DNA from: Patescibacteria group bacterium
GTDB taxonomy: Bacteria; Patescibacteriota; Microgenomatia; Levybacterales; UBA12049
Direction: 5' to 3'
Length of the DNA: 58,895 nt
NCBI GenBank assembly: GCA_036392095.1
Contig: DASVYQ010000110.1
Span: 1-58,895 of the forward strand
A program made the position numbers and the translations under genes. Of the stretch, positions 26,840-48,152 are shown in pieces (position 1 is the stretch's first letter; each line of letters starts with the position of its first letter). The notes under the pieces were generated by a model that was given only the letters and a program-made list of their open reading frames with translations, was not told where the DNA came from and searched no databases.

Positions 26840-29800
26840 TTAATTTACAATCAGCCAGTTAAACTGTGTGGCTGTCGCATTTGGCTGTGGAATGCCAACA
26901 GTAAAGCTGATTCCTGGAACTTGCCTCATTAAGACTGGAATCTGGCCAGTATCTCCAACAGGCGTAATGTAGATAAGTGATTTATCGGTAACCAATGGAT
27001 TATCTATGGTAATTTCTTTCTGATAAGAATTAATTTGGGTTGTTCCTGCAGAACCGGTTGCCTGTACTTCTGTATCAGAAACAGCATAGGCAGGTGGGGC
27101 AAGTTCTAGATTAAGTTTGGCAACAGTTGCAGTTCCGCTTGCAACAACATCTCCAAGTTGGTTAACTGCGAAAACAGCAGAACCGGTTGCATTGGTTACT
27201 TTGAATTGAGATGAAGGGTTTGGATTATTACTGTCTCCAAGTTGTACAGACAAGTCTTGGTTAGGAAGTGGAGAAAGAACTTTTACTGCTAGGGAACTAT
27301 TAAAGACTGCTTTTCCATTAACTGTTAAGTTTCCGTTTTGGTCAATTTTTACTTGTCCTGCTGCTATTGAAACGCCTCCTTGTGCCAAAGGCTGCAACTG
27401 TAAGTCTCCTCCTAAGACATTAATACTGTTATCAGAAAGAATAAATTGTGCACCAATAGAGAGTTGTCCTGTAATTGTTGTGTCAGATAGAGATGTTGGA
27501 CCAAGTGACATAAGTCCTTGAGCAAACGTTGCAGTGGTTGCTGACAGTTGTGGAACATATGCCAAATATGCTGAGAAGCTTGCTAAATTGGTATATCCGC
27601 CTGGCAGTGTCGGAGAATAACTGCTAGCGAGATTTTGTGCACTTGCAGTACCAGCATTTGCAATGTCAGAAGACGGAGTTGCGAAATAAATATTCGTGAC
27701 GTTTGTAATGTTTTGAGCAGATAATGTACCCACTGCTGCAGAAAGTCCATCTATTTCATTAGCCACGATTCTTCCGGCATGAAGAGTCCCGGAGACTGTT
27801 GCATCAGAATTTACTGCAAGATTTTCTGAATTTAGCGTTCCGCTGAATGTTGCGTTGCCGGAATTGTCAATTTGGGCAACAACTGCGCTGTTTGTTGTGG
27901 TGCCATTTCTTATAGAAAGTGTATTATCTTCAAAAGAAAGAGAAATATTCCCGGTGTTACTAAGCGGAGAAATTATGTTGGTATGTATGGTATCTATCTC
28001 GGCAAGCGGGGAGATAATGTGAGTGCTACTCACTAACCCGGCATTTTGCACAACAGTAATAATATAATCCTGTAGTGACTGTCCTGCGATAGTAATATTA
28101 TTGGTTGCAACAGCCAAAGAATTGGTTGCAATATGTTGTGCTTGTACAAACCCTGCTTGTAAGGATGCAATAAGTGCTTGACTGTATGTGTCTACATGAG
28201 TCACAACATTTCCAAGGTTATCTAAAATCTGATAGGCAGTTGCGCCAATTTGCTGGAGACTAAATTCATTAGTATTGGCAAGCTGCGAATTAGGGTTATA
28301 TTCTCCAGTTTGCATGTATACATAAATAAGCCCGCAAACAACGCCGGGTGGAGCATCAGACGGACAGACAATTTGCTGCCCCAAGTTATGCGCTGGGTCA
28401 AAGTCTTCTAACGCCGGACCAATAGTAACTCCATCTTGAGTTGCTTTCATACCAATTCCAGGAATACTACTTGAAGTAATTCTATCTCCTGAGTGGATTG
28501 GACCATTTATGGTCGATACTTTGGTTGGAACTTTTCCAATTTCTGCAACGGCTGGATGCAATGGTTCTGCTGTGTAGCCTCCTGCCATAAGTCCTACAGA
28601 ATTTCCTTCAATAGTAATAGCTGGATTAGTAGAAACAACACCTAGCAGCCCTTTGTCATAGGCAACGGCTGCTTTTTTAACTAATTTTCCTGTTGTGTCT
28701 ACGTTTGCAGAAGCTGAGGAATCATTATCTATGGTAATAATATCTCCTTTGTCTGTTGCAGATGATGCATGATAATACTCAGCCACGTCACCGCAGGTGT
28801 TAGAACCAATATTAAGACATGCTGCTCCTACCTGAAGAATCTTAGGATCGGCATTAAAACAGCTAATACAAACATGTTGGTTTTTCTGTACGTTAATGGT
28901 TGGTGGGGAGGTATGTCCGGTATCGGTAATATATAAATTACTGGTTGAGGTAACAAATGCTTCATAAGAAGATCCTGCGCTCCAGACAACTCCCGATGTT
29001 CCTCCAACAGTTACTTTGCCAGAAAAGCTTGCATTTCCAGCTGCAGATATCCAAGCATGTTCGGCGGCATTTGTTGTACCTTGAGAACATCCTCCGTTGG
29101 CACAAGAACCTCCCCAAATACTAAAGGTTTCTGAATCATCATTGTCATCTTGCAAATAGACACGCAAATCAAAAGTATTTGTTGCACAACCACCATTTTG
29201 TGTTGAACAAGCATAAATAAATCCGTTATCATTATCAGAAGATGGGAAGTTAATCATACCGTAGTCCCCGGAGATTGTCCCTGTACCAACAGTTAAGTCT
29301 CCATAGACATCTAACTTACTTCTAGGCGTTCCTGTTGTACCAATACCTACATTGTTTCCTTGGCTGTTAAGAAGCAATGGTTTACTGTTCCAGGTTTGCA
29401 TATAGCCAAAAGATGCATCAGAACCAAGAGTAATATCGCTTGCATTTGTGTTGCCTGCGGAAAAAGCGTATGTACTTGACGTGGCAGCGGTAAGAGTTCC
29501 TCCTTTAACAGTAAGAGGATTTGGTTCACTTGTAGTGCCAATACCTACATTCCCATTACCATCTAATCGTATACCACTTGTAGCATTCATCCATGGAGCA
29601 ATTACTAAGCCATTTGCAGTGCCAATTGATTGGCCGCCATAGATAATTTGATTGTCATTAGCAACAGTAATACTGTTAAAGGAACCTCCACCAACTGCAG
29701 CGCCTACCCAAACTTGTTGCGTTGTACTATTTATATGCATATAAGTTGCACCTGAATTATAAACTTCTAATTTTTGGTCAGGAGCTGTTGTTCCAACACC

Positions 29801-32800
29801 AACACTTCCGGCAACTGCCATAGCTGTAGTAAGAGCGTTAGGATCTAAGAAGTAATTCGTATTATCTAAATCATAAAAGCTTCTTGCTTGCAGTTGTCCA
29901 GAAGATTTAACAGTAAATTCTGTTTGACCAGAGTAAGAAGCTGTAATAATATCTCCATTTGTTCCAGCAAGATTGGGTTGATTAACCACTAATTCAGCAT
30001 TTCCAAGATTTGCTGTTGTGCCTATACCAACGTTGCCTGTTGGATCAACATATAAACGGCTTATACCACTGGTTGCAATATCATAGGTATTATTGTCTTG
30101 CTCAAATGGTCTGTCAGAAATTTCAGGCATAGAAACCTGCATTGTTCCACCGGTATTGTAGTTAACAATAATAAGCGGTTTAATGTACCGTGTTCCAACA
30201 GGGAAGGTTGTATTTGCTGTTCCTTCACCTTGGACCTTGCCATAGTACCAGGTTCCAGAGGCAGTTGGGTTTTGTGCGCTTGCAATAAAGTAGCCATAGG
30301 TACCGCCATTGCCATGTAAAACGTTTAGATTTTGGTCGTATGCAATATATCCTGCATAAAATGTACCAGTCCCAGATGTTCTTACCGCCCAAATACGGCC
30401 ATAATAGGTTCTTTGAGGATCAACTGGAATAAGTTGATCAATATAATACCAGCCCGCTAAAGAAGAATTAGTAAATTGATGCACAATGCCTGTTGGAACA
30501 GCACTGTTTGTAGCAACTGTTGTAATTGTTGCTGCTTGTCCGGTAATAAGTTTCCAGAAAGAAGTTGAATTGCTCCAACCATCTGCAGATAGTGGGATCA
30601 TGTTTGCTCCAGCTACGCCTCCAATTTGATCTCTCGTGTAGCCGGTTGATCGAATATCTCCGTTTACATCAAGTGTATATTGTGCGCTATTTGTAGCAAT
30701 ACCAACTTTTCCTGCAAAAATTGCACTACCAGTTGCATTAATAACTAGTCCTGCATTATATCCAGCAGGTGAGGGAACAACAGGAGATGATGTAGTTGCA
30801 ATATATACTCCTGGATAATTTCTTCTTTCAGCTTGTGCGCCCCATAGATAGTAGGTTGAGTTTAAAGACCATAGCTTTATTTGGAATCCTCGTGGAGAGC
30901 CTGATGCTGTAAGATTATTTGTTGAATAGGTATATCTTTTCCATGTGGTTGTAAGTGTAAATATATTGCCAGAATTAGAATCATTGGCTCCAAGTTGAAC
31001 CGATTCGCCACCAACAGCCCCTTTAAGCCAGATAGAAACGGTATATGGTCCGGAATTAGGGAATGATGTTATATTTTGAACATATCCTTGCGATGATCCA
31101 ACCGGCCAAGAGCTAGGTGTAATTGCTTGCGTTGCAGTATAGGTTCCATCTGGTGCAGCACTTTGTGTTGCATTGTCAGTTGTTGTTGGTAAACTCCAAT
31201 ACCCTGAATATGCAGATCCGCTAAATGCTCCTTGTGAATAAATCATAAGGTTTTCATAATTTCCAATTCCTCCAAATGGAGTATTTTGTCCGCCAATTTG
31301 TTCTATGCCTCCAGTTGCGGTTACTCTAAAAAGATTAGTAAATGTTGAATCATCAAATGCTGCTAAATCTGTTGTATTGCCATTAGCCAAACTTAAGGAG
31401 GTATTACCGGCAACTTCTAATTTTGCTATTGGACTTGCAATACCAATACCTACAGTACCGTTGGTAACAGGTGTTGAAGAAACTGTGTTTCCGTTATATA
31501 GTCCTGTACCATATATTAAGTTACCAATATTTAACTGTTGATTGCTTGTATTGGATGGCAAATCTACATTTTGGCCTAAGGCAATGTTATAATTTCCAGA
31601 GCTAAGATCATATCCTGCTTGATAACCTAAAAGAGTATTGGCTGTACCTCCAGTATTATAACCTGCTTTATAACCAAGCTGGGTTGAATTAGTGGGTAAA
31701 GAATTTGCCGCCCAACTTGTTTCATAACCGACAAATACATCATTAGAATAAGCTCCAGTCACATTTCCATAACCTGCTCCATAACCAACTGCTACTGAAT
31801 TTGCACCTGCTGTATTTATATTGAGGGCTAACGATCCAATAGCTGTATTATAACTTCCAGTTGTATTTCCATTTAAGGATTGTTGACCAATGGCAGTATT
31901 GTCTTGACCCGAAGTATTTAGGGTAAGTGCTGTAGCTCCTACTGCAGTATTATCAATCCCACTCGTATTAAGCTTTAATGCCTGATATCCTATTGCAGCA
32001 TTAAGTTGCCCAGAGGTGTTATTTTGAAGTGAGTAATTTCCAAGCCCAACATTATCATTACCTGTTGTAACAGATAATCCAGAATTGACACCAATAAATG
32101 AATTATTAAGTCCCGAGCCACCTGAGCGTAATTCTAAACCGGCTGTACCATCGCTATTTAAAAGTTTTGCAACAGGAGCTGAGTTACTTGTTAATTGTTT
32201 TACAGAAACACTGGTTATTGTTCCATACCAATTATTACTTGGCTGAAAAATTAATGAACCAGCTCCTGCAGCAGTAATTATTTCTGTATCTGTACCTGAT
32301 TGACTAGGTCCGTCTGCATAAGCGTTATTTGCAGCTGTTGACCCAAAGCTAAAAGTAATACTTCCCGATGAAGAAGCAGTTGATGTATAGGCAAATGAAA
32401 TCTGATAGGTATTACCCGAGGCAGGTGCTGCACTTAGTGCACTATTTGTAAGTGTTAAATTGTTTGCTCCAACAGTATCTTTTTGTGCAAATCCGTTCCC
32501 AATAATATGCCATGAAGTTGAGTCAGTCCAATTGCCGGTATTAGAAGAGAATGTCCGGTCAGCTGCATTGGTAATCATTTCAGCGCCTAAACCTGCTATT
32601 GAATTTGCATTCCCCTGAACAGTTAAATTTGCCGTCGGATTGGTTGTTCCGAGGCCAACATAACCGGTATTTGCAATGTAAAGTGCCGGTTTACTTGTTG
32701 TAATGCCTGCATTGCCTCCAACTGAGTTATAAAAACCAAGAGATCCGTTATTAAGCAGGTTAACCTGACTTGCGCTTCCTGTAAAAGTCAAATAGCCAGA

Positions 32801-35800
32801 GGTGGAGGCTGTACCTGCAGGAATACTGCCATTTGCCAGGCCAAATACTTGGAATGCACTTCCTGTACCCGTTCCGCCAACAGCTAGATCAAGTGCAGAC
32901 CATGTTGGGGAGAGAACTGATCCATTTAATTGCCAATATCCATCGGTTCCTCCTGTAATTGGTGTATGGATGTTTTTTACATATAAATTGTTCCATGCAT
33001 CGCCAGGTGCGCCAATATTTGCAGAGCCATCACTTCCGGGTAAGATATTGCCAGAGGTATCGATAGATGTTTTTACAGCTGTTGCACCTGTACTGTTAAC
33101 TAAAAGACCTGAATTTACCTGCAACTGTGTTGCAACACCTTGTAAAACTACACTGTTTGGTAGGGTAAAGGAGCCTCCGATAGTCAAGCTGCCTGCATTG
33201 GTAATAAAGTTGGTTCCGCTAAAGAATTGAATATTACCTCCGCTTGAGGTTGTGCCAAGAGTAACTGTGCCTGTTCCTGCATAAATAGCTAAAGGATTAT
33301 TACTAGTTGTTGTTAAAACAGGATTTGTGCCAGAGAAGGTGGTTGTTAAACTATTTATGAATAAGTTACTTCCTGTACCCCCATTAAGAGGTGAAAGTGT
33401 TATGTTTCCGGTTGTATTACCACCAATAGTTATATTATTATTTTGTGCTCCTTGAATTGTTCCATTCCCAATAAGAGAAAGAGCTCTGTTTGTTCCATCT
33501 TGTGCAGAAACAGATGCTGTTGGTGTGCCTCCTGAAATATTCAATACTGCAAATTTAGCTGATTGGGTTGCATTAGTTGTATCTGTTACTCCAACTAAAA
33601 CATCTAATGTATTATTAATAGGATATAAGGTTCCATTTGCAGAATTTAAGACCCAATTGGAACCTCCGGTTCCAGATCCGCAAGCACCCCAGGTTGGTGT
33701 ACCTCCGCCAGTTGATTGCAAACATTGATTTGTTCCGCCTGCAGTTGTTTGTGTAAATACACCATTTGAATCTGTAAAGAATATTCCGCCACCAGTTTTG
33801 TATTTGGTCGATGCTAATGTGCCGTCATTTTCAATAGTAAATCTGGTTGTTCCAGAAGAGGAAGCAGAGAATATGTCTCCACTCCCAGAAAGATTTTGTT
33901 GATTAACAACTAATGCTCCATTGCCATAGGTAGTTGTACCAATGGTTACTGTTCCATAAGGTTGCAACGTTACAAGGGTGCCAGAATCCCATGTATTGCC
34001 ATATGTGGTTTGTAATCTAATCCCATGGCTGCTAGCTCCTTGAAATATTGCATACTGTCCATCATATCCAATAAATGCTCTATTATTAGCGCTTATATAC
34101 GTTGTTGAATTTGTATTATCTCCCAAAAATACACTATTGCCTGTTTTAGCCACTTGAAGCGGTGCATTAGGAATTGCAGTTCCTACGCCAATATTGCCTG
34201 ATTGGGTTATTACGAATCGTGTTTGGCCAGAAGAAGAGGCAGTAATTAGATCTCCTAAGGTATTTGTAACAATAAAGCCAGCAAAGTTTGTGGTGGCAGC
34301 AACAGTTGCTGCAGGACCGTTAAGATCGCTTCCAAAGGCTTGGAAAGTGGCGGATGCTGTTCCATTTCCACCAACTGCTAAGTCATTGGCAACATTTGAT
34401 GGGGTAATAACATTGTTTGCCAATTGCCAGAAGCCTTCTGTTCCTCCTGCAACCGGCAAATAAATATTATTTGTATTAATCGCTACGCCATAAATATTTC
34501 TCCATCGCAAAGTAGAGGAGCCTAAGTCAAAAAGATTGTCGTTGTTTGGACCAACATGTCCTGCAACTTGTAATTTAAAACTGGAAGGATTTGTTGTTCC
34601 AATACCAACTGAGCCTGCAACAACCAAAGAATTCCCGACAGAATTAGGATCTAAGAAATATGCGGTATTATTAATATCATAAAAGCTTGCTGCTTGTACT
34701 TGTCCGGTGTTATCTACAGTGAATTTAGCAGTTCCAGAGACAGAAGCGCTAATGAGCGGACCTGTTGAATCCTGCTCTATAGTAAAGGCTGATTGACCAC
34801 TTGATGTAGCAAGGATTGAGGCAATAGAGTCGATTTCTACTGCTCCTAAGGCAGTACTTATATTTCCGGTAAATGATGTATTTTGTAATGGTCTGAATAC
34901 GTCTATTTTCCCGAGGCCGTCTGGATTTAATTGTATGTCTCCATTGCTTCCTGCATTGGTTGCAAGTATTGTCGTTTGACCGGTTAATTTAATATTGCTT
35001 GATGTTGCTTGAATGGTCGTTGTTGGATTAGTTGAACCTGGAATAGCCACAACTCCGGAGGAGTTAAGGGCTAGCACTGCATTTGCATTACTGACAACTG
35101 AAGCATCTGTAATGGGCGGCAAGCCTTGTAGGACTTCGGCATTCGTTGCATAGGCAACTGTTGCAATTTGTTGTCTGGGGGTTAATTCTGGTGTGCTTTC
35201 TACGGTTACTCCCATGTATAATCCACTATTTTGCGCAAAAAGACTTTGCGGGATTCCACAAGCTCCAGTTGCCGGACTGCTTGGAGGATTGCCGCTGTTG
35301 CAAAGGGTAGCATTGCCGCCGGTACCGTTACTTCCTAAAAGCAAAGAAAAAATTCCGTCTGTATCTGGACTTACTCTATCGACCTCTTCCCATAAACGGG
35401 CACCAGCTGAGGCTGTCGGATCGTTGTAGATAACAAATCTTAAGTTGGTTGCAGTGGTAATAGGGTTACCGTTATTGTCAGTCAGTCTTCCTTGAAAAGA
35501 TAAAATTCGCAAAGGCGCCACTGGGGCAGCTGCCAAAACAGGTGATTTAGCACCTCGGCTTCCAATAAGAGCATAGTAAGCAGTAAATCCAATAACTGTT
35601 GAAAGAACAATTAAGACAGCCAAATTAAAATATCTGGCTAATGCTAGAGTATGATATCTTCTATACCATTCTGGTCTAGTAAATCTTACATGAAACCATA
35701 CTTTTTGAAACCAAGTAAAGTTTTTGGTAGACATTTTGGTTGGAGCATATAATTCTTTTGGTAAATTAGTAACCCGAGATGGCTTTTTTATAACAAAGCG

Positions 35801-36730
35801 TGATAATTTTCTGTCAAAAACAGGTTTGCCTCGTAATTCCCAGATTCGATTTGAGGCCAAATTTATCAGAGAGAACAGCCAAGTGACAATAATTTTTTCA
35901 ATCAAGAAATCTAGTCCTGACAGGCTTTTTTGAAGTAATCGAATTGGAGGAAATGGAGAATAGCTTGGTGCAGCTTGCTCTTCTTTAACCCTTGGTTTCT
36001 CAGTTACTATAACAGGTGTTTCCTTAGATAAAATAGCCTCAATTGTGCTCTGAGAAAGGGTTGTTACTTCTGGTTTTTTCACAAAACTAATATGTGCTTT
36101 AGAATCAGTAATGATTCCTTGTTCTTTTGCCCATGAAAGATATTTGCGTAAAGAAGAAAGTTTTCTGTTGATTGAGCTTGCAGAGAAGATGTTTTGACTA
36201 TACAAACGATCTCTGTATGTCTCTAACAGCTTATTAGAAACACTGTTTAATATTTCTTGATCAGTTACGTCTTGTCCGTTTTCATTTTTTGCAACTTCTT
36301 TTGCCCAGGCAAAAAATTGTTTTACATCAATGATATAGTTTTTTATAGTTAGAGCAGAAGCGTTATAGACATACAAAAAGTTTTTAAAAGCTTTTAGCCT
36401 AAAAGGATCTGCTTCTTCAATTGTTTCTTTCGGAGTGTCAGAAAAAGGATCATGTGAAATAATTCCTTCGATTTTTAAGAAGTGAAAAAACTTACGAAGC
36501 GAAGAAACGTAGCGCTCAATAGAACTGATTGCTGTTTCTGAAGCAAAAGCATCTTTAAACTGTTGGATTGTCTCATAAGAGACTTCTTGTGCTTTAAATT
36601 CTTGGTTAAATGTGTTCTGAAACCAAGAAATAAATTTTCTAATATCTGCCAAATAATTTTTCACAGTTAATTGTGACGGAGAATTTTGTTGAGAAAGTAA
36701 ATATTTTTTAAAAAGATCTAGTAAATACAT
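26840..36730 (-). CDS. Giant (~3,300 aa) single-pass membrane / surface fibre protein
   Basis: The reading frame is uninterrupted. The longest ORF starts at a TTG at 36847. I prefer the ATG at 36730 (MYLLDLFKKYLL...) because two TATAAT hexamers (36787-36782 and 36778-36773) lie inside the extension. Residue numbers below count from 36847. The layout is two Phage_int_SAM-like domains (aa 40-250), a TM helix (aa ~404-429), then Gly/Thr/Asn/Ser-rich tail-fibre-like repeats. Confidence 0.9.
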   Translation of the reverse strand: MYLLDLFKKYLLSQQNSPSQLTVKNYLADIRKFISWFQNTFNQEFKAQEVSYETIQQFKDAFASETAISSIERYVSSLRKFFHFLKIEGIISHDPFSDTPKETIEEADPFRLKAFKNFLYVYNASALTIKNYIIDVKQFFAWAKEVAKNENGQDVTDQEILNSVSNKLLETYRDRLYSQNIFSASSINRKLSSLRKYLSWAKEQGIITDSKAHISFVKKPEVTTLSQSTIEAILSKETPVIVTEKPRVKEEQAAPSYSPFPPIRLLQKSLSGLDFLIEKIIVTWLFSLINLASNRIWELRGKPVFDRKLSRFVIKKPSRVTNLPKELYAPTKMSTKNFTWFQKVWFHVRFTRPEWYRRYHTLALARYFNLAVLIVLSTVIGFTAYYALIGSRGAKSPVLAAAPVAPLRILSFQGRLTDNNGNPITTATNLRFVIYNDPTASAGARLWEEVDRVSPDTDGIFSLLLGSNGTGGNATLCNSGNPPSSPATGACGIPQSLFAQNSGLYMGVTVESTPELTPRQQIATVAYATNAEVLQGLPPITDASVVSNANAVLALNSSGVVAIPGSTNPTTTIQATSSNIKLTGQTTILATNAGSNGDIQLNPDGLGKIDVFRPLQNTSFTGNISTALGAVEIDSIASILATSSGQSAFTIEQDSTGPLISASVSGTAKFTVDNTGQVQAASFYDINNTAYFLDPNSVGNSLVVAGSVGIGTTNPSSFKLQVAGHVGPNNDNLFDLGSSTLRWRNIYGVAINTNNIYLPVAGGTEGFWQLANNVITPSNVANDLAVGGNGTASATFQAFGSDLNGPAATVAATTNFAGFIVTNTLGDLITASSSGQTRFVITQSGNIGVGTAIPNAPLQVAKTGNSVFLGDNTNSTTYISANNRAFIGYDGQYAIFQGASSHGIRLQTTYGNTWDSGTLVTLQPYGTVTIGTTTYGNGALVVNQQNLSGSGDIFSASSSGTTRFTIENDGTLASTKYKTGGGIFFTDSNGVFTQTTAGGTNQCLQSTGGGTPTWGACGSGTGGSNWVLNSANGTLYPINNTLDVLVGVTDTTNATQSAKFAVLNISGGTPTASVSAQDGTNRALSLIGNGTIQGAQNNNITIGGNTTGNITLSPLNGGTGSNLFINSLTTTFSGTNPVLTTTSNNPLAIYAGTGTVTLGTTSSGGNIQFFSGTNFITNAGSLTIGGSFTLPNSVVLQGVATQLQVNSGLLVNSTGATAVKTSIDTSGNILPGSDGSANIGAPGDAWNNLYVKNIHTPITGGTDGYWQLNGSVLSPTWSALDLAVGGTGTGSAFQVFGLANGSIPAGTASTSGYLTFTGSASQVNLLNNGSLGFYNSVGGNAGITTSKPALYIANTGYVGLGTTNPTANLTVQGNANSIAGLGAEMITNAADRTFSSNTGNWTDSTSWHIIGNGFAQKDTVGANNLTLTNSALSAAPASGNTYQISFAYTSTASSSGSITFSFGSTAANNAYADGPSQSGTDTEIITAAGAGSLIFQPSNNWYGTITSVSVKQLTSNSAPVAKLLNSDGTAGLELRSGGSGLNNSFIGVNSGLSVTTGNDNVGLGNYSLQNNTSGQLNAAIGYQALKLNTSGIDNTAVGATALTLNTSGQDNTAIGQQSLNGNTTGSYNTAIGSLALNINTAGANSVAVGYGAGYGNVTGAYSNDVFVGYETSWAANSLPTNSTQLGYKAGYNTGGTANTLLGYQAGYDLSSGNYNIALGQNVDLPSNTSNQQLNIGNLIYGTGLYNGNTVSSTPVTNGTVGIGIASPIAKLEVAGNTSLSLANGNTTDLAAFDDSTFTNLFRVTATGGIEQIGGQNTPFGGIGNYENLMIYSQGAFSGSAYSGYWSLPTTTDNATQSAAPDGTYTATQAITPSSWPVGSSQGYVQNITSFPNSGPYTVSIWLKGAVGGESVQLGANDSNSGNIFTLTTTWKRYTYSTNNLTASGSPRGFQIKLWSLNSTYYLWGAQAERRNYPGVYIATTSSPVVPSPAGYNAGLVINATGSAIFAGKVGIATNSAQYTLDVNGDIRSTGYTRDQIGGVAGANMIPLSADGWSNSTSFWKLITGQAATITTVATNSAVPTGIVHQFTNSSLAGWYYIDQLIPVDPQRTYYGRIWAVRTSGTGTFYAGYIAYDQNLNVLHGNGGTYGYFIASAQNPTASGTWYYGKVQGEGTANTTFPVGTRYIKPLIIVNYNTGGTMQVSMPEISDRPFEQDNNTYDIATSGISRLYVDPTGNVGIGTTANLGNAELVVNQPNLAGTNGDIITASYSGQTEFTVKSSGQLQARSFYDLDNTNYFLDPNALTTAMAVAGSVGVGTTAPDQKLEVYNSGATYMHINSTTQQVWVGAAVGGGSFNSITVANDNQIIYGGQSIGTANGLVIAPWMNATSGIRLDGNGNVGIGTTSEPNPLTVKGGTLTAATSSTYAFSAGNTNASDITLGSDASFGYMQTWNSKPLLLNSQGNNVGIGTTGTPRSKLDVYGDLTVGTGTISGDYGMINFPSSDNDNGFIYACSTQNGGCATNTFDLRVYLQDDNDDSETFSIWGGSCANGGCSQGTTNAAEHAWISAAGNASFSGKVTVGGTSGVVWSAGSSYEAFVTSTSNLYITDTGHTSPPTINVQKNQHVCISCFNADPKILQVGAACLNIGSNTCGDVAEYYHASSATDKGDIITIDNDSSASANVDTTGKLVKKAAVAYDKGLLGVVSTNPAITIEGNSVGLMAGGYTAEPLHPAVAEIGKVPTKVSTINGPIHSGDRITSSSIPGIGMKATQDGVTIGPALEDFDPAHNLGQQIVCPSDAPPGVVCGLIYVYMQTGEYNPNSQLANTNEFSLQQIGATAYQILDNLGNVVTHVDTYSQALIASLQAGFVQAQHIATNSLAVATNNITIAGQSLQDYIITVVQNAGLVSSTHIISPLAEIDTIHTNIISPLSNTGNISLSFEDNTLSIRNGTTTNSAVVAQIDNSGNATFSGTLNSENLAVNSDATVSGTLHAGRIVANEIDGLSAAVGTLSAQNITNVTNIYFATPSSDIANAGTASAQNLASSYSPTLPGGYTNLASFSAYLAYVPQLSATTATFAQGLMSLGPTSLSDTTITGQLSIGAQFILSDNSINVLGGDLQLQPLAQGGVSIAAGQVKIDQNGNLTVNGKAVFNSSLAVKVLSPLPNQDLSVQLGDSNNPNPSSQFKVTNATGSAVFAVNQLGDVVASGTATVAKLNLELAPPAYAVSDTEVQATGSAGTTQINSYQKEITIDNPLVTDKSLIYITPVGDTGQIPVLMRQVPGISFTVGIPQPNATATQFNWLIVN

Positions 36731-37378
36731 AGGGCAGTGTGAAAATTGTGAAAATAAGTAGCTAGCTTCAAAATTATACAGATTATACGTTTTATCATGA
36801 AACCTACTACTATTAATAAGCGTAGAAAGTATACACCTAGTTGTCAAGAACCTAGAGTGAAAACAGATTCAAAATAATTGAATGCAGATTTATATATTTT
36901 GATACGGTTGTGAAAAGGGAGGGACAGGCATTAAATCTTGTAAAAAGTGTAAAAAAATTAGAATAGGTAATTCGGGAATTCGATAAATGTTATACTTTTA
37001 CAATATCTAAATATATCATTGAATATCAAATATAAAGAAAATTTAAATGATAGGGAATGATATAGTTATTTTACTCTTTTTGCTAAATTGTAAAGTTGTT
37101 CTTGTTTTATTCGATTTTTTCTTAAGAAAAATTAATTATGAACACTGTTTTTTAAACTAATTTTAATTGCTTATTGGGTCTAAAAAATAATATGAGATAG
37201 TAATTAGCAAAAGAAGAAAGACAGTGACAAAAAATGGCACTAGTAGTTTTGGCCTATTCGTATTATCTAAAATTAATGCTAAGAGAGAAAAGTGGATTAA
37301 GAAAGAATAGTGAAGGAATTTACTATTGAATTATTGTACTTTGGCTTCTTTCTCTATACAATAAGAGTAACCTAATCT

Positions 37379-38254
37379 ATGAAAAATAACAAGCTGCCCC
37401 TTGTTAACCTATTTATTGCTATTTTGTTCGCATTTTTAACTGCGGTGCCAGCATATGCAAGTAGCACTGGCAATGCTTCCTCAGATGTAAGCGCAACTGT
37501 TGGTCAATATTACTTAGATGTTTCCGGATATATTGCCCCTTTTGCATCAATTGTGCTTCTCTCTAATGATCAGCCTCTTCGAACAACAGTCGCAGATTCT
37601 CAAGGATATTTTTCTTTGTCTCAAGTATTGGTTAGTAAAGGGTTTTCTGGATTTTGTTTAGATGCAGTGGATGTAAAGAGGCTAGGAGAGTCCTACAAGT
37701 GTTTTACATTTGCGCCTTTAACCAACAGCCTTTCTATGAAGAATTTGTTTTTACCGCCAACCTTGGGGCTTCAAAGAACCGAAATTACCCAGGGTGACCA
37801 AGCTGTTATCTGGGGATACAGCATGCCTAATGCTACCGTGGTCGTTCACTTAAGCAATGGACAAACATTTACAACTACTGCAGATAACACAGGATATTAT
37901 GAAGTAAAAACAACCATAGCGAAGGCTGGTCAATATGAATTGTATGCCGATGCTACATTCCAGAATAAAAAGTCTCTTATTCCGGACAGAAAAGTCACAC
38001 TTTTAGCACTCTCAACAAGCGAGCAAATAGCAAAAGCAGGATTAAATTGGCTTACCAATCTAATCAATTTCTTGCTTGGCAGCCCATGGGGAATAGTGCT
38101 AGCTATTTTACCTATTTTTATCCTTATTCTTATACTTATTTACAAGCTCAAGCCCGAATGGTTTACGGTTATTGACCAAAAATTTCACCAAGTAGCCTCG
38201 CATATTCCATTTTTCCCTCATAGGTTGCACCATTGGTGGTTTGTAGGGTATTGA
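37379..38254 (+). CDS. Secreted protein with two Ig-like / carboxypeptidase-regulatory-like domains and a C-terminal TM anchor
   Basis: It has a signal peptide (AILFAFLTAVPAYA). Two repeats are VSGYIAPFASIVLLSNDQPLRTTVADSQGYFSL and IWGYSMPNATVVVHLSNGQTFTTTADNTGYYEV. The TM helix is GIVLAILPIFILILILIY. Confidence 0.6.
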   Translation: MKNNKLPLVNLFIAILFAFLTAVPAYASSTGNASSDVSATVGQYYLDVSGYIAPFASIVLLSNDQPLRTTVADSQGYFSLSQVLVSKGFSGFCLDAVDVKRLGESYKCFTFAPLTNSLSMKNLFLPPTLGLQRTEITQGDQAVIWGYSMPNATVVVHLSNGQTFTTTADNTGYYEVKTTIAKAGQYELYADATFQNKKSLIPDRKVTLLALSTSEQIAKAGLNWLTNLINFLLGSPWGIVLAILPIFILILILIYKLKPEWFTVIDQKFHQVASHIPFFPHRLHHWWFVGY

Positions 38255-38780
38255 TTTATTTTTTAAAGCGGAAAATAGATATCTTACTCAATCTTCTAAA
38301 TAAAAAAATCGTATCTAAAATCAGAAGTAAATAATTAAGGTTGAAGATAGCTAGCATCATAATTGTGAATATGTATTCGATGTGCATAGATCATTAACAT
38401 TATGGCTTCGCCAAATTGTAACTGTTAAAAATGAAATTCCACACGAAACAAGAATAAAAATAATAGAAAAAAGTGTCTTCATGTTTTTATGAAGAATAAA
38501 AGTAATTATTATTAGCCTTAAAAGACTTGTAGTAAATAAAAAAGGACGTAGTAAAATTTTTTGTGGACAACTCTAAAATTATAGGGGATAACTTTATAGT
38601 CTTATAATATTTTCACGCCTAAAAACAATATTTCACACCTTAAGAGGCAACAACAATTTGTTTTTCTTGATACTCGGGAATGTTGTTTACCGAATGTATG
38701 TAATGGGGAAATTAGGTAAAAGTACAATAATAGCCTTGAAAGAAATATATTGTGAAATCTGTGAAAATAGTCAAAAATTG

Positions 38781-38801
38781 TAAGCGTCTAGAATGCCCTA
38801 G
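38781..38801. repeat. 21-bp repeat, inverted copy of 48117-48137
   Basis: TAAGCGTCTAGAATGCCCTAG is the exact reverse complement of CTAGGGCATTCTAGACGCTTA at 48117-48137. It contains the TAG stop codon of the 38798-39766 gene. Confidence 0.9.
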
Positions 38802-39766
38802 AACGCGTTTTCATGAGGATCAAGGGAAGATAGGTCATCTTCATGTTTGTTTTTTCTCCTTCTATATAATAGGAATGCCAGAACGATTGCTATGAGTACT
38901 AATGCAATAACAGTTGCGGCTCTCCATGGAAATACCCAGAAAACAAGTGTTGCGCTAAGTGGTAAATTGCCTCCTGTGCCATAACTTCCTAAAAGTGTTG
39001 CCGTAAAACGGCCTATCATAAGCTTTGTCCCGAGCGTATTTATATAATCACGTGCAATGCCTCCTGGAAAAATATTCCCCTGAGGCAATTCAGCAGTTGC
39101 AACAACTCTTCCAAGCATGTCTTTTACTGTAATTGTTGCTTGGGGAGTAATATGCAAATCCCCAAAATTTTTAATTTCGGTTTGTATTTTAATAGGGCCA
39201 TATTCAGAAAAATTAGGTGCGGTAAATTTGGTTACTTTGGCAGATTCATTAATGGTTCCTTTTATGTCAATATAGACAAGTGTAGCTATCTGTGTTTGGA
39301 TTTTTGCTCCAACTGATGGCTGACCAGATTGATTAACCGGTTGATAGATAAGTGCTGCATAATGGCCACCGGCTCCGGCATCTTGTGGAACTTGAATGTA
39401 GTAATTAAAGTCAAATCGTTGGTGTCTCTTTACGGTAAATTCTTCAGGGTACACGGCAATCCAGTTAGCTGCACTGTATTTGTTATTTAGTATGGTGTTT
39501 CGTGGCAAAACTTGAGGTGTTCCATTATTGTCAGTAACAATAAAGTCATAGACTCCTGTTATAAAGGTCATATCGGTATCTGAATCATTAATAATTCCGA
39601 GTCTTCCTTCTGTTTTGTCTCCAGGGTTAAGCGTAACTTCAATCTTGGGTGGGGTTATAGTAACTTGTTGTAACTCTTGTGCATTTGTTTGAGAAACAAA
39701 CAAAAGTATGGCAAGTCCCATGGCTATAATTGATATTGTTTCTCCAATTATTTTTATAATTTTCAT
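38798..39766 (-). CDS. Signal-peptide, C-terminally TM-anchored surface protein (DUF916/DUF3324-like layout), paralog B
   Basis: I prefer the ATG at 39766 (MKIIKIIG...), 1 nt after the upstream stop (TAA-T-ATG). Motifs are QQVTITPPKIEV, IINDSDTD, GGHYAALIY, GPIKIQTEIKN and VKDMLGR. The TM helix is followed by a basic YRRRKNK tail. Confidence 0.6.
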   Translation of the reverse strand: MKIIKIIGETISIIAMGLAILLFVSQTNAQELQQVTITPPKIEVTLNPGDKTEGRLGIINDSDTDMTFITGVYDFIVTDNNGTPQVLPRNTILNNKYSAANWIAVYPEEFTVKRHQRFDFNYYIQVPQDAGAGGHYAALIYQPVNQSGQPSVGAKIQTQIATLVYIDIKGTINESAKVTKFTAPNFSEYGPIKIQTEIKNFGDLHITPQATITVKDMLGRVVATAELPQGNIFPGGIARDYINTLGTKLMIGRFTATLLGSYGTGGNLPLSATLVFWVFPWRAATVIALVLIAIVLAFLLYRRRKNKHEDDLSSLDPHENAF

Positions 39767-39767
39767 A

Positions 39768-41207
39768 TTAGAACGTGGTCGATGCCACATATGTTATTGT
39801 TGTATGGTAATCGCCAGGTGGTGTTGTTCCTTGAGGTGAAGCTGCATATTCAATATAGAATGTGTCTCCGCTGGTTGCCGGTCCTGAGACAGAACTAACA
39901 AGCGTGTAATAATATTGAGCAGAAGGATTAGCATAAAAATTGCTGCTTCCTGTTCCTGCACCCCACTTAGTTGTATTAATCTTTGCTTGAGCACTTAAAT
40001 CGCAAGGGTGAATACCAAACCTATTGCTTCCAGCTGTAATTGTGGCTGTAGCAGTATTTGGAGCAGGCGTGTCATTATTGGTTGGTGTTCCTTGAGCATC
40101 TTGAATAGCATATCCGTTAGCAGGATTAAGCAAATGTCCAGATGAAGTGGCAGTAATGGTATAGCCATTAATTGCATTAGAGGTTATAACCATTTTTTGG
40201 GCTGCAATATTAACATTTGTTGCCAAAAGAGTGCCTAAGTTAACATTAGTAGAAGTAGATGCAAAGCCGGAATTTGTTGTGTCATTGTTGGTTCCTCCGT
40301 CTGTACATAAAGAAGTAAGTGAAGTGCCGTTAGCAACTCCTGTAATAACAAAAGTAAATGTTGGATCAATATGAGCAGTAACTGTTACAGATTCAACCGT
40401 TCCGACTTTAATTTTTGTATTGTCTAATACATTACTTGAAGCATCGGTTGTATTAATATTTACTGCCCAGGTGTCTGCTGTTCCTGCGGTTGCTGACTTA
40501 GTTGGATTAATAAGTGTTGGTACCTGGTTTGCAACTGCGCAAGACGTTCCGGCAGTTGTACAGCCAACAAGAATTGTTACTGTTGTTCCTGCAGAAACAG
40601 CTGCTGTTCCAACAGTGCAGGTAATTGTTGGAGCAGAGCCTGCTGCTGTTCCGGTTATTGCAAAAGTACATGTAGATGTGCCGGTAGAGAAATTAGCTTT
40701 AATATTACTCGTAGAAAGTCCGTTAAACATAAATGTAGAAGCAGAAGGAGAAGCTTGATTAGTATCAGAGCTGTTAGAAGTGGGGAATGAAATAACAATT
40801 GTTCCACTGGTTGGAATATTTGTTTGCGTTGTAAACTGAATTGCGTGTACAGCTGTTATTGCAGTAGAAACAACAGTTCCATTGGCATGGGCTTGCGTTG
40901 CAGTTGCCGTAAAGTAAAGAGTTGTTGCTGCGGCAGATACTGTTGCAACATTCAAACTTTCTCCTGTTTGACCCCAAAAATGTGCAGAATCTGATGCTAA
41001 AAACGTTGAGCCATTATTAACAATACTTGCTTGAGCATCTCCTACACTGACATTTGCAGATAGAGGAGTGGAAGGCGAAGGGCGTGAAGTTGTAATGGTG
41101 TCTGATGCCGATCCCAGCGTTGCAGCATGTGCTTTAGGCACAGCAGCAAAAAATATTGCAAAGATTCCCAATAGCAAAAATCCCCATTTATGGGCAAGCA
41201 AGGACAT
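39768..41207 (-). CDS. Secreted Thr/Ala/Ser-rich beta protein with a shared C-terminal domain ending YVASTTF
   Basis: It has a signal peptide (FFAAVPKAHA). Its C-terminal half is homologous to the 42260-43003 product (FTFVITG, VNLGTL, NGYTITA, HLLNP, FGIHPCD, PPGDYHTTITYVASTTF). Confidence 0.6.
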   Translation of the reverse strand: MSLLAHKWGFLLLGIFAIFFAAVPKAHAATLGSASDTITTSRPSPSTPLSANVSVGDAQASIVNNGSTFLASDSAHFWGQTGESLNVATVSAAATTLYFTATATQAHANGTVVSTAITAVHAIQFTTQTNIPTSGTIVISFPTSNSSDTNQASPSASTFMFNGLSTSNIKANFSTGTSTCTFAITGTAAGSAPTITCTVGTAAVSAGTTVTILVGCTTAGTSCAVANQVPTLINPTKSATAGTADTWAVNINTTDASSNVLDNTKIKVGTVESVTVTAHIDPTFTFVITGVANGTSLTSLCTDGGTNNDTTNSGFASTSTNVNLGTLLATNVNIAAQKMVITSNAINGYTITATSSGHLLNPANGYAIQDAQGTPTNNDTPAPNTATATITAGSNRFGIHPCDLSAQAKINTTKWGAGTGSSNFYANPSAQYYYTLVSSVSGPATSGDTFYIEYAASPQGTTPPGDYHTTITYVASTTF

Positions 41208-41275
41208 ATATTATTATATGGAGAAAATAAGACTATCTGTCAAGTATATATGTGATAATAAAAATTAAAAATTTA

Positions 41276-42256
41276 TTAAATTTTTTTGTTTTCGCGGATT
41301 TTTCGTTTTATATGATAGAAAATAGCGGCTCCAATAAGACACAGCAAGATTAGTATAATAAAAAAACTAATAGGAAATGCAACAAAATATATCGTTTTAG
41401 TAAAAAGTGGACCAGTACTTGATAGAGCTACTGTTAGCGTTGCAGAATAGAGTCCAAAAACAAATGTTTCTGGCCAAATAGCTTTTTCTAAAGATCCAGA
41501 TTTATTATCTGGTAAAAACCGATTTGTGTTTGCCAATATATTTACAGGTAAAAGTTGTATATGACCAACAGCTTGTCCAAACATATTTTTTACAACAATG
41601 TCGCCTTTAGGTACAATGAAAAAATTGCTTGTATTTTGTACGCTTGTGGTAAATGCAATTGGGCCATGTGTTGTAAACCATGGGGTAGAGAACTCGTTTA
41701 ACAATCCTGTTGTATTGCCTTTTGGTCCAATAGAAAGCAGCACATTTATACCAATGCCCGCTGTCGTTGAGGCTGTTGTCGCATTTGCTAAATTTTGTCC
41801 ATGTGAAAGGAAAAGAATGGTAAAGTAATAATCCGAAGGAGGTTCATCTGAAGGAATACCAATATGCAGTAATAAGTTCTTTTGTTGCTGGGGAGCAAGC
41901 GTTAGCTTTGTTATAACACTTGAGCCATCATAAATCTGCATTTTTGAAAAAATATCTGGATCTGCTCCGGGCATTTGTTGACCATCTGGTAAAAAAGATA
42001 CTTCACCATTTCCTTTTTCAGATGAAGTAAATGGTTTAAGCACAATATCTAAATCAATTGGAGCATCACTGCTGTTAACGATGGTAAATGGAGCCTTGAC
42101 ACTTGCGGGAGCATCGGTATTAATTTGTAAAATTGGCGGATATACCTCTAATGATACTTGCTGTGCGAAAGCAGGACGTATAAAAAATGGGATAATCATT
42201 GGTACGCCAAGCAAAACAATCAAATTTTTTATAATAAAAATTTTCATAGTTCTCAT
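41276..42256 (-). CDS. Signal-peptide, C-terminally TM-anchored surface protein (DUF916/DUF3324-like layout), paralog A
   Basis: Motifs are QQVSLEVYPPILQI, IVNSSDAPID, PPSDYYFTILF, GPIAFTTSVQN and VKNMFGQ. The TM helix is followed by an HIKRKIRENKKI tail. Confidence 0.6.
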   Translation of the reverse strand: MRTMKIFIIKNLIVLLGVPMIIPFFIRPAFAQQVSLEVYPPILQINTDAPASVKAPFTIVNSSDAPIDLDIVLKPFTSSEKGNGEVSFLPDGQQMPGADPDIFSKMQIYDGSSVITKLTLAPQQQKNLLLHIGIPSDEPPSDYYFTILFLSHGQNLANATTASTTAGIGINVLLSIGPKGNTTGLLNEFSTPWFTTHGPIAFTTSVQNTSNFFIVPKGDIVVKNMFGQAVGHIQLLPVNILANTNRFLPDNKSGSLEKAIWPETFVFGLYSATLTVALSSTGPLFTKTIYFVAFPISFFIILILLCLIGAAIFYHIKRKIRENKKI

Positions 42257-42259
42257 ATA

Positions 42260-43003
42260 TTAAAATGTAGGCGTTGCTACATAATTAATTTGATTTAGAT
42301 AATTTCCCGGCGCTTGTGTGCCAGAAATGTTAGCCTTAAATGTAATTGTTGCTTGTGCATTCTTAACAAGATTAGTTCCTGATAATACACTTTGCGGTGT
42401 TTGCGAAAATTCTTTATTTGCAAATGGGGCATAGTAGTTGGCAGTAGTAAATACACATGGAGTGCCGCTGACATTATCGCATCTGTATCCAAAACCATAC
42501 GTGAGAGGATTGGTCCAAGTTGAAGGAGTAGAAGCAGTACATGTTCCGCTGTCACAAGTTGTATCGGGAATTCTTGAACCAGAATCCGGGCGAAGTAATT
42601 GATGATTTTCTTGAGCAGTTACGCTATATCCATATGCCGAACCATTGGTTATGGTTAGTGTTTGGGTTCTGGTAACAGGATTGCTGGCAGTTAGCGTACC
42701 AAAATCTATGACTTGGGACGAAACAATAAATTTAAATCTGACAATTGAGGAAATGTATTGAAATCCTGCCTTAATAATATAATTTGTTCCGGTATATTGC
42801 CCTGCCCCTAATTGTCCGCCTGTATCCTGCAGCACAAATCCAGAACCTGATTTTCTTCCTGCAAAGCTATTTAAATTGCCCATTTGCAGCAAATAAAGGG
42901 AGTTAGACATATTGAGAGCATGTGCATGCAACGTAGTTGCAATAAAAAATCCAAAAAAAGAAAGAATTCCTATTGTAATTTTTAGGCGGGCAGAGTGTTT
43001 CAT
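42260..43003 (-). CDS. Secreted beta protein with a shared C-terminal domain ending YVATPTF
   Basis: I prefer the ATG at 43003 (MKHSARLK...), 1 nt after the upstream stop (TAA-T-ATG); the track start is 43024. It has a signal peptide (ATTLHAHA), three SxxY/FxL-type N-terminal repeats and four Cys. It ends APGNYLNQINYVATPTF. Confidence 0.6.
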   Translation of the reverse strand: MKHSARLKITIGILSFFGFFIATTLHAHALNMSNSLYLLQMGNLNSFAGRKSGSGFVLQDTGGQLGAGQYTGTNYIIKAGFQYISSIVRFKFIVSSQVIDFGTLTASNPVTRTQTLTITNGSAYGYSVTAQENHQLLRPDSGSRIPDTTCDSGTCTASTPSTWTNPLTYGFGYRCDNVSGTPCVFTTANYYAPFANKEFSQTPQSVLSGTNLVKNAQATITFKANISGTQAPGNYLNQINYVATPTF

Positions 43004-43004
43004 A

Positions 43005-43640
43005 TTACTTTTTTGATTCTTCACGGAGTTCTTCTGTTTCTTCTAAGATTTCATTTAATTTTTCTATATCTTTGTCTTTCAAAACTTTTTTTTCTTCCTG
43101 CAAAACATGTTCTATATCTTTAGAAATGGTATCTGCTGCATCTTTTGTTCTTTCTTCCATGGATTCAATAATTTGTTCTTCTTTATCTCGGTCTTGATAT
43201 TCACGGCCAAAAAAGTAAGCAAGAGGAGAGATAAGTAAAATAGAGCCAAGACGAACAAAGCTTTCTATTGACCCGTTTTTTATTGCTTCAGGCATAAATA
43301 CTGCTATGGTTCCAAGTGCAAAAATAAAAACAGAAACAGGCTCAAAAATAAAGGTTATGCCAAACCCTAAAAAGTATAACAAGAAAAAGAGTGGAGAATA
43401 GATATTTCCGGTGATCCCAATTATAAGTAGTATAGCGGTGTTAAGAATAAAAATATCAGAACTGCTGCTAAATCTTTCGGCATGAGGGTTTCTTTTGCTT
43501 CGAATAAAAGAAATAACCATATATGCTAACACCAAAATACCCAGTGCCTGAACAGTAAAATCAGACAAAAGTGTTTGCTTCCAAATAAATACAATAATAA
43601 AAGAAACAACTAAAATAACTCCATGCCAAAGTGTCTTCAT
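43005..43640 (-). CDS. Polytopic (~5 TM) membrane protein with an acidic coiled-coil C-terminal tail
   Basis: 211 aa and the first gene of the operon. The tail is DRDKEEQIIESMEERTKDAADTISKDIEHVLQEEKKVLKDKDIEKLNEILEETEELREESKK. Confidence 0.55.
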   Translation of the reverse strand: MKTLWHGVILVVSFIIVFIWKQTLLSDFTVQALGILVLAYMVISFIRSKRNPHAERFSSSSDIFILNTAILLIIGITGNIYSPLFFLLYFLGFGITFIFEPVSVFIFALGTIAVFMPEAIKNGSIESFVRLGSILLISPLAYFFGREYQDRDKEEQIIESMEERTKDAADTISKDIEHVLQEEKKVLKDKDIEKLNEILEETEELREESKK

Positions 43641-48085: not shown

Positions 48086-48116
48086 TCTATAGTCGCTTTT
48101 TGCAGAAAATCGTTTC

Positions 48117-48137
48117 CTAGGGCATTCTAGACGCTTA
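48117..48137. repeat. 21-bp repeat, inverted copy of 38781-38801
   Basis: CTAGGGCATTCTAGACGCTTA lies in the comEA-comEC spacer. Confidence 0.9.
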
Positions 48138-48152
48138 AAAAAACTTTGTAGT

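Follow-up and report, generated by a model that had tools for sequence, protein, structure and literature searches.

The 58,895-nucleotide (nt) contig DASVYQ010000110.1 of a Patescibacteria group bacterium (Levybacterales; UBA12049; assembly GCA_036392095.1), called here over its whole length the window, carries on its minus strand a giant gene whose product is best read as a type II (N terminus inside) membrane-anchored surface fiber of enormous size, composed of modules resembling those of phage tail fibers and tail spikes. The predicted cytoplasmic head of this fiber consists of two tandem core-binding (CB) domains of the tyrosine-recombinase type and lacks the catalytic domain. Comparison with its relatives leads us to favor, at about even probability, a membrane-tethered, noncatalytic DNA-binding protein that would work in the manner of ToxR, TcpP, and CadC. 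The gene and the parts of its product, in amino acids (aa), are as follows.

26840 to 36730, minus strand: giant gene, 3,296 aa plus stop, starting with the ATG at 36730
36464 to 36721, minus strand: CB domain 1, Phage_int_SAM_1, aa 4 to 89; AlphaFold2 helices at aa 2 to 13, 20 to 41, 52 to 63, and 68 to 87
36122 to 36397, minus strand: CB domain 2, Phage_int_SAM_1, aa ~112 to 203; AlphaFold2 helices at aa 112 to 121, 126 to 151, 157 to 162, 166 to 178, and 184 to 203
35966 to 36103, minus strand: variable linker, predicted to be disordered, aa 210 to 255, containing LSQSTIEAILSKE
35831 to 35965, minus strand: motif YSxFPPxRLxQK and long amphipathic helix, aa 256 to 300 (helix at aa 261 to 300)
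35645 to 35713, minus strand: basic/aromatic juxtamembrane motif (R/K)xTRPxWY(K/R)xYH, aa 340 to 362
35552 to 35644, minus strand: single transmembrane helix (signal anchor), aa 363 to 393
26843 to 35551, minus strand: acidic ectodomain, aa 394 to 3296 (2,903 aa), opening with the family signature PxRILSFQGRLTD
31373 to 32116, minus strand: segment resembling tail-spike and virion structural proteins, ~aa 1539 to 1786, from PHROG matches
26843 to 28795, minus strand: conserved C-terminal module, aa 2646 to 3296, ending in FNWLIVN

The gene lies in an uninterrupted 10-kb open reading frame (ORF), listed at 26840 to 36847 on the minus strand with an upstream TTG included. The ATG at 36730 is taken as the true start because homologs from many genomes share this first Met (MYLLDLFKKYLL...) and because the alternative TTG at 36847 sits within a conserved TTGACA promoter box. 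The residue numbers of the first-pass annotation, which had used the TTG, are accordingly 39 too high, while its coordinates for the head, 36104 to 36730, are correct and correspond to aa 1 to 209. The cluster representative P0074, also of 3,296 aa, probably stands for the window protein.

Several independent lines of comparison identify the head. The Pfam model PF02899 (Phage_int_SAM_1) matches two stretches of it at 72 bits against a cutoff of 22.3 (E = 5e-20), with weaker matches from the SAM_4 and SAM_5 models, and the first domain shares 35% of its residues with the second (E = 5e-14). AlphaFold2 models, computed for aa 1 to 430 with 39 sequences and for aa 1 to 215 with 48 sequences, both contain two helical bundles with a predicted local distance difference test score (pLDDT) above 90. 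When these were compared with the PDB by Foldseek, the top matches were all tyrosine-recombinase CB domains, namely, those of lambda Int, XerD (1a0p), XerA, Brujita Int, IntI, and Cre, which superpose at 2.1 to 2.4 Å over 96 to 101 residues with a probability of 1.0; the TM-score of the head domain against the isolated lambda CB domain (2oxo) is 0.71. The E values of these matches are modest (0.05 to 0.3), as expected for a small helical domain. With a score over the gathering threshold and the helical-bundle fold, each head domain belongs to the Phage_int_SAM_1 family, and the tandem arrangement proposed in the first-pass annotation is borne out by both profile and fold. In the course of these comparisons we also observed that chain 14 of PDB entry 9i5v (401 aa), labeled “Ribosome-associated translation inhibitor RaiA,” has an N-terminal Xer-like CB domain (E = 1.8e-9 to the family profile); the sequence may have been misjoined, fused, or mislabeled.

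The catalytic half of a recombinase is absent, as had also been claimed. No Pfam match to the Phage_integrase catalytic domain was obtained in aa 1 to 410 or across the whole protein, and the NCBIfam XerC/XerD equivalog models reach 72 to 75 bits, far under their cutoffs of 330 to 335, with only the first ~100 model positions aligned. Past CB domain 2, the chain passes through the disordered linker to the transmembrane helix. The stretch LSQSTIEAILSKE, previously taken for the beginning of a catalytic domain, cannot be upheld as such: it falls in the variable linker, where pLDDT is below 50 (aa 221 to 252) and the family alignment shows no conservation. Since the catalytic domain is missing, the head cannot recombine DNA. 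Like XerC, XerD, XerA, and lambda Int, the window protein has the helical-bundle CB fold, with the patterns T-x-x-x-Y-x-x-D...F in helix B and S-x-x-R-x-x-S-x-L-R-x-F in helix D; unlike tyrosine recombinases, it is without the catalytic domain and its R-K-H-R-H-Y active site, and its CB domain is duplicated in tandem. Further, whereas those enzymes are soluble proteins of ~300 to 400 aa, this one has 3,296 aa, a transmembrane helix, and an ectodomain of ~2,900 aa. It is not a tyrosine recombinase, the defining catalytic domain having been tested for and found to be absent. Of the 61 proteins recovered with its N-terminal part as the query (see below), most are from short contigs and bear the NCBI name “site-specific integrase, partial”; the integrase label is a misannotation.

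The membrane topology is predicted from hydropathy and charge. The transmembrane helix has a Kyte-Doolittle maximum of 2.13 and is modeled by AlphaFold2 as a helix over the same residues. Its N-terminal flank (aa 263 to 380; 118 residues) has a net charge of +15 and a pI of 10.4, and the 2,903-residue ectodomain has a pI of 4.4; by the positive-inside rule, this contrast between a basic flank and an acidic ectodomain predicts that the N terminus and the head are cytoplasmic and that the ectodomain lies outside. The arrangement sketched in the first-pass annotation, one transmembrane helix between a cytoplasmic head and some 2,900 extracellular residues, hence agrees with hydropathy, the structural model, and the charge bias. 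A second transmembrane helix at aa 270 to 293, which would place head and fiber on the same side of the membrane, was considered and rejected on several grounds: D, E, and K occur in this segment, its counterparts in homologs contain P and charged residues, it is modeled as part of a long amphipathic helix, and the whole region is missing in the relative P0182. The YSxFPPxRLxQK motif and amphipathic helix are, in fact, dispensable in some relatives, of which P0182 is an example, and the juxtamembrane motif is retained even in relatives whose head has been replaced by another domain.

The outer part is, on sequence grounds, a tail-fiber-like protein. This assignment follows from PHROG matches in the ectodomain (phrog_23837, E = 3e-19; phrog_6002; and the tail-spike family phrog_4636, E = 1e-15), from the homology of its C-terminal module to a Peptidase_G2-annotated protein, and from a Peptidase_S74 chaperone domain (PF13884, E = 8e-12) in the family member P0156. 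Specifically, the last 650 residues show homology (34% identity, E = 9e-77) to the ORF that follows the head ORF at locus L001 in a complete Levybacteria chromosome, and this ORF carries a match to Peptidase_G2 (PF11962). In the window protein itself, neither PF11962 nor Peptidase_S74 was detected directly with Pfam. The C-terminal end is kept in P0156, P0163, P0182, and P0188, and the ectodomain as a whole is repetitive and rich in G, T, S, and N, as is typical of fibers. By analogy with phage tail fibers, whose known behavior is to trimerize, the fiber probably forms a trimer. The likeness extends to phage tail fibers and spikes with intramolecular chaperones and to giant bacterial adhesins, as judged from the PHROG families and the Peptidase_S74 and Peptidase_G2 domains of relatives. 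Unlike phage fibers, however, the window protein has an N-terminal signal-anchor helix and a 360-aa cytoplasmic domain, and it is chromosomal, vertically inherited, and not part of a virion.

The combination of head, transmembrane helix, and fiber is widespread in the lineage. A word-indexed search with aa 1 to 420 as the query recovered 61 proteins. An exhaustive search of 1.84 billion cluster representatives (50%-identity clusters) with a profile of head, linker, and transmembrane helix yielded 713 clusters at a threshold of E ≤ 1e-30; among the best 150 of these 713, which range from 1,200 to 6,048 aa in length, nearly all align from residue 1 through the head, linker, transmembrane helix, and start of the fiber. 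A scan in which each species was represented by a single genome established at least 223 loci, and the 80 of them that were analyzed are mostly labeled Levybacteria/Levyibacteriota or Patescibacteria. The survey suggested in the first-pass annotation thus finds the architecture to be recurrent and mostly levybacterial. In every analyzed locus with enough downstream DNA, head, transmembrane helix, and fiber form one ORF of 1,300 to more than 3,800 codons, and the loci fall into two size classes of ~1.35 to 1.6 thousand and 2.2 to 3.8+ thousand codons. The first-pass annotation had also held this architecture to be undescribed. We found no description of it in the searchable literature, the coverage of which is incomplete, and to that extent the statement stands; the proteins themselves are already in the databases as “site-specific integrase.” As a side observation, many Third Party Annotation (TPA) metagenome-assembled genomes titled “uncultured Gammaproteobacteria bacterium” (L005, L007, L008, and others) contain a Levybacteria-type locus with the same synteny, and these organism labels look wrong.

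These data also bear on the idea that the head is a nonfunctional prophage or integrase remnant fused to a tail-fiber gene, or an artifact of assembly or a frameshift. Both halves of the protein do have phage-like relatives (integrase CB domains and tail-spike modules), and the gene is in two ORFs in some assemblies: at L001 (10001 to 14627) and L002 (10001 to 15822), on long-read contigs of 1.14 Mb and 434 kb, a head ORF is followed by an overlapping second ORF. This split is probably a frameshift, from a sequencing error or in a pseudogene, rather than a separate head gene. Against the remnant or artifact stand the continuity of the ORF, seen in the window as well as in dozens of independent genomes, the presence of invariant residues across proteins that are 31 to 45% identical, the fixed place of the gene near leuS in a conserved cluster of surface-protein genes, and the lack of any integrase or mobile-element gene among the neighboring ORFs scanned. 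We therefore regard this alternative as scarcely tenable and as largely refuted by conservation and synteny. In particular, a frameshift or misassembly hiding a separate, complete integrase gene upstream of the fiber, the outcome that the first-pass annotation named as fatal to its claim, is excluded by the single ORF in the window, in every locus with enough downstream DNA, and among the best 150 of the 713 clusters. Its own suggestion that the head might be a domesticated fragment of an integrated element is likewise a poor fit to vertical, lineage-wide conservation at a fixed place near leuS.

What the head does is suggested by its conserved residues and, above all, by its replacements. Helices B and D are the parts of the CB domain that enter the major groove of DNA in the solved complexes of Cre, XerD, and lambda Int. 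Across 41 to 48 family members that are 31 to 50% identical, the invariant or nearly invariant residues of the two CB domains include the polar and basic ones, namely, in helix B, T22/T128, K24/K130, N25/N131, Y26/Y132, and D29/D135 (pattern T-x-K-N-Y-x-x-D) and, in helix D, R73/R189, S76-S77/S192-S193, R79/R195, and K80 (pattern N-R-K-L-S-S-L-R-K). Family-wide invariance is seen at K24, N25, Y26, D29, R73, S76, and L78 in CB domain 1 and at T128, K130, Y132, D135, W142, Y172, R189, S193, and R195 in CB domain 2. Both domains are basic throughout the family, with mean net charges of +4.8 and +3.6 and median pIs of 9.6 and 9.3. The head most likely still binds DNA, and helices B and D of the two CB domains would make the contact.

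Close relatives of the fiber carry other heads. P0060 and P0200 have, in place of the CB domains, a head of the MerR/HTH_17 (excisionase-type) family, at 43.8 and 48.1 bits against a cutoff of 28.2. P0060 and the tandem-CB protein P0055 are 65% identical over 147 residues spanning the linker, juxtamembrane motif, transmembrane helix, and fiber start, and their heads are unrelated. Within the same fiber subclade, P0055 has the tandem CB domains and P0057 and P0058 have a single CB domain, and the distant relatives P0059 and P0061 have a CB domain of half length. All six of these head-swapped relatives (P0060, P0200, P0057, P0058, P0059, and P0061) resemble the window protein in the juxtamembrane motif, the transmembrane helix, and the fiber start PPRILSFQGRLTD; they differ in the head, which either has another DNA-binding fold or consists of one CB domain or part of one, and they are known only from short fragments. 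The exchange of one DNA-binding fold for another at the same position is the strongest indication that DNA binding is the function selected for there. The first-pass annotation had suggested that the head might couple surface contact to DNA; the MerR-headed relatives lend this support.

A candidate target for such a head lies immediately upstream of the gene, where the following features were recognized.

36819 to 36858, minus strand: conserved sigma-70-like promoter block, ACTCTAGGttcTTGACA, 17-nt spacer, TACGCT
36762 to 36796, minus strand: gene-specific element GATAAAAC-GTATAATCT-GTATAAT-TTTGAAGCTAG, ending 31 nt before the ATG
36773 to 36788, minus strand: core 16-mer GTATAATCTGTATAAT of this element, ending 42 nt before the ATG
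36739 to 36754, minus strand: pair of TTTCAC motifs in the leader, spaced 9 nt apart (TTTTCACAATTTTCAC)

The element is made of two to three tandem 9-bp units, (c)GTATAATC(C), each of which contains a perfect TATAAT hexamer. A single copy of the 16-mer GTATAATCYGTATAAT is present in the window, against 0.1 expected by chance. An exact copy is found once in each of 45 loci, and with up to two mismatches it is present in all 80 loci having upstream DNA, always on the coding strand and no more than 1.2 kb upstream of the head. A metagenome scan in the reverse direction, beginning from the 16-mer motif, returned 120 contigs, and a head gene lies downstream of the motif in 105 of the 113 informative ones, with the ATG most often 48 to 51 nt beyond the end of the 16-mer. 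As for the remainder, seven contigs are too short to judge; of the other eight, five look like chance matches in unrelated DNA, L191 is ambiguous in its assignment, L153 has a headless membrane protein, and in L107 the motif is followed by a small ORF resembling a four-helix-bundle protein of the 23S rRNA intervening sequence (IVS) type, after which the contig ends before any head gene could appear. We also observed that at L037, L053, and L062 the element lies 0.2 to 1.1 kb from the giant gene, leaving room for an extra small ORF between them.

The strict conservation of this element beside proteins that are merely 31 to 45% identical points to a constrained regulatory element. Two other interpretations were rejected: it is not a general promoter of these genomes, with a single further match of the 16-mer, at up to two mismatches, elsewhere in 1.27 Mb, and it is not the arm of an invertible switch, since neither the window nor the loci contain the 16-mer in inverted orientation. 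The tandem head may bind the element as its operator, another factor may bind there, or the element may be just an unusual strong promoter. The sigma-70-like promoter block, with the family consensus ACTcTAgGttcTTGACA-N17/18-TAttCT, lies upstream of the repeats. The TTTCAC motif of the leader shows, in the 79 loci compared, a 13-fold enrichment on the coding strand of the 300 nt that precede the gene, and its spacings cluster at 9 to 11, 19 to 22, and 30 to 32 nt, near multiples of 10 nt. The tandem repeats of the gene's own promoter, the phased TTTCAC motifs, or both appear to be the likeliest target of the head.

Should the upstream TTGACA promoter be active, the repeats and the TTTCAC motifs would lie in the transcribed leader, and this, along with the strongly basic character of the head and juxtamembrane region, raises the alternative that the head binds RNA, such as its own 5′ leader, or acidic lipids and has a posttranscriptional or membrane-surface role. 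In the leader, however, no Rfam family was matched and no RNA structure was detected; its length and sequence vary between the conserved short motifs, and both CB and MerR helix-turn-helix domains are binders of duplex DNA. We consider an RNA- or lipid-binding head decidedly improbable.

Taking these findings together, we propose a possible mechanism for the membrane-tethered DNA-binding protein that we favor. The fiber would report attachment, tension, or completed export through the single transmembrane helix to a cluster of tandem CB domains, and these would bind the tandem 9-bp GTATAATC(C) repeats, the phased TTTCAC sites, or both in the promoter and leader of the fiber gene. Such binding might take place in cis: cotranslational insertion of the nascent product would keep the gene at the membrane and so bring the sites within reach. 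This full route, contact-to-promoter signaling within one polypeptide that acts on its own promoter, is a more specific claim than DNA binding by a tethered head, and we regard it as a fairly unlikely one.

Several observations weigh against these proposals. The tandem TATAAT element may be just the strong, multistart promoter of a highly expressed surface protein, and at L153 it precedes a transmembrane protein that has no head. The MerR-headed variants number only two, and both are short fragments (238 and 262 aa). The trimeric state of the fiber is argued solely from phage fibers. The mutual orientation of the two CB domains is not fixed in the AlphaFold2 models (pTM, the predicted TM-score, of 0.42 and 0.54); the Arg residues that follow the conserved Tyr in helix B of XerC and XerD (AYRRDL) are replaced in the family by K-N-Y-x-x-D; and the conserved basic residues could be equally suited to acidic lipids, RNA, or another protein. 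Some of these points feed an alternative in which the CB domains no longer bind nucleic acid and act in the cytoplasm as an adaptor between proteins or as a structural anchor, with roles such as localizing the fiber, docking to a cytoskeletal or divisome partner, or aiding export. The loss of the XerD-type Arg pair and the ill-defined orientation of the domains would fit an adaptor, as would the missing catalytic partner domain, which in recombinases completes the clamp around DNA, and the half-length CB remnants of P0059 and P0061. On the other hand, close relatives of the fiber use as their head an excisionase-type helix-turn-helix, a dedicated DNA-binding fold; both CB domains have a basic character in the family at large; and the recombinase-family consensus of helices B and D is maintained. 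We accordingly view the adaptor as rather unlikely.

Parallels to a DNA-binding head at the membrane are offered by known regulators. Like ToxR, TcpP, CadC, VtrA, and ChiS/TfoS, the window protein is predicted to have an N-terminal cytoplasmic module, a single transmembrane helix, and an extracytoplasmic C-terminal part. Several of these proteins are reported to bind direct repeats in promoters while anchored in the membrane (PMC11856585, PMC7888679, PMC8546550). Unlike in ToxR and CadC, the head is a tandem of recombinase CB domains rather than an OmpR-type winged helix, the Pfam and NCBIfam matches being to SAM-like domains only, and the outer part is a giant tail-fiber-like structure in place of a small periplasmic sensor. 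The window protein is hence not a member of the ToxR family, from which it differs in fold, though by analogy it may be similar in its working.

The genomic neighborhood is conserved in most loci in the order comEC and comEA, a 408-aa ORF, leuS, a run of five genes whose products are membrane or secreted proteins, a gene in the opposite orientation for an immunoglobulin (Ig)-domain membrane protein, the giant gene, and a gene for a multi-transmembrane protein with tetratricopeptide repeats (TPR). The cluster of envelope-protein genes upstream of the giant gene (37379 to 43640 in the window, 3400 to 9358 in L003, and present in most other loci) encodes a protein with four transmembrane helices and an acidic tail (211 aa); two S/T-rich secreted proteins (254 and 479 aa) that end in G-x-Y-x3-I-x-Y-V-A-x2-T-F and are WxL-like by eye; two paralogs (326 and 330 aa) with a signal peptide and a C-terminal transmembrane anchor, a relative of which has a weak WxLIP_PGBD match; and the Ig-domain protein (291 aa). 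This cluster resembles the WxL surface-complex loci of Firmicutes. All of the genes between leuS and the giant gene encode envelope proteins, which fits a cell-surface locus and does not fit a mobile element. Gene order alone is, however, no proof of a functional link, since housekeeping genes share the synteny.

Next to leuS, a few kilobases upstream of the surface-protein cluster and ~10 kb from the giant gene, are comEA (HHH_3/SLBB) and comEC (Competence), at 46233 to 49403 and 43700 to 46177 on the plus strand, in an arrangement also found in L003; their proximity probably reflects lineage-wide synteny rather than a functional link. Three large multi-transmembrane proteins with C-terminal TPR repeats are encoded nearby (13376 to 15325, 22198 to 24231, and 25112 to 26815), and a TPR677-like gene lies 3′ of the giant gene in many loci. 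The first-pass annotation had asked whether a neighboring xerC or xerD paralog might have donated the head; none was found in the window, and a tblastn search with the head domains found no other CB-domain copy in it, nor was any recognizable integrase seen there. An XerD query gave one weak tblastn match at 19213 to 19326 on the plus strand (E = 0.042, 39% identity over 38 aa), which covers the region of the C-terminal catalytic motif of XerD, lies inside a 457-aa ORF without a Pfam family, and is probably due to chance.

Levybacteria and other bacteria of the candidate phyla radiation are ultrasmall, are mostly uncultured, and are thought to live attached to other cells. In this lineage, a giant surface fiber is joined throughout to a tandem module of a DNA-binding type, with an invariant cis-element as its candidate target, and this layout, shared by hundreds of related genomes, may form a direct connection between the cell surface and DNA. 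Several hundred entries now named “site-specific integrase” are not recombinases, which affects counts of mobile elements in these genomes. If the reading of the head as a tethered DNA-binding module is true, it would add a second DNA-binding fold to membrane-tethered proteins, beyond the winged helix of the ToxR type. Should the full contact-to-promoter route hold as well, the DNA-binding domain of recombinases would form the basis of a previously unrecognized class of membrane-tethered regulators in bacteria of the candidate phyla radiation.

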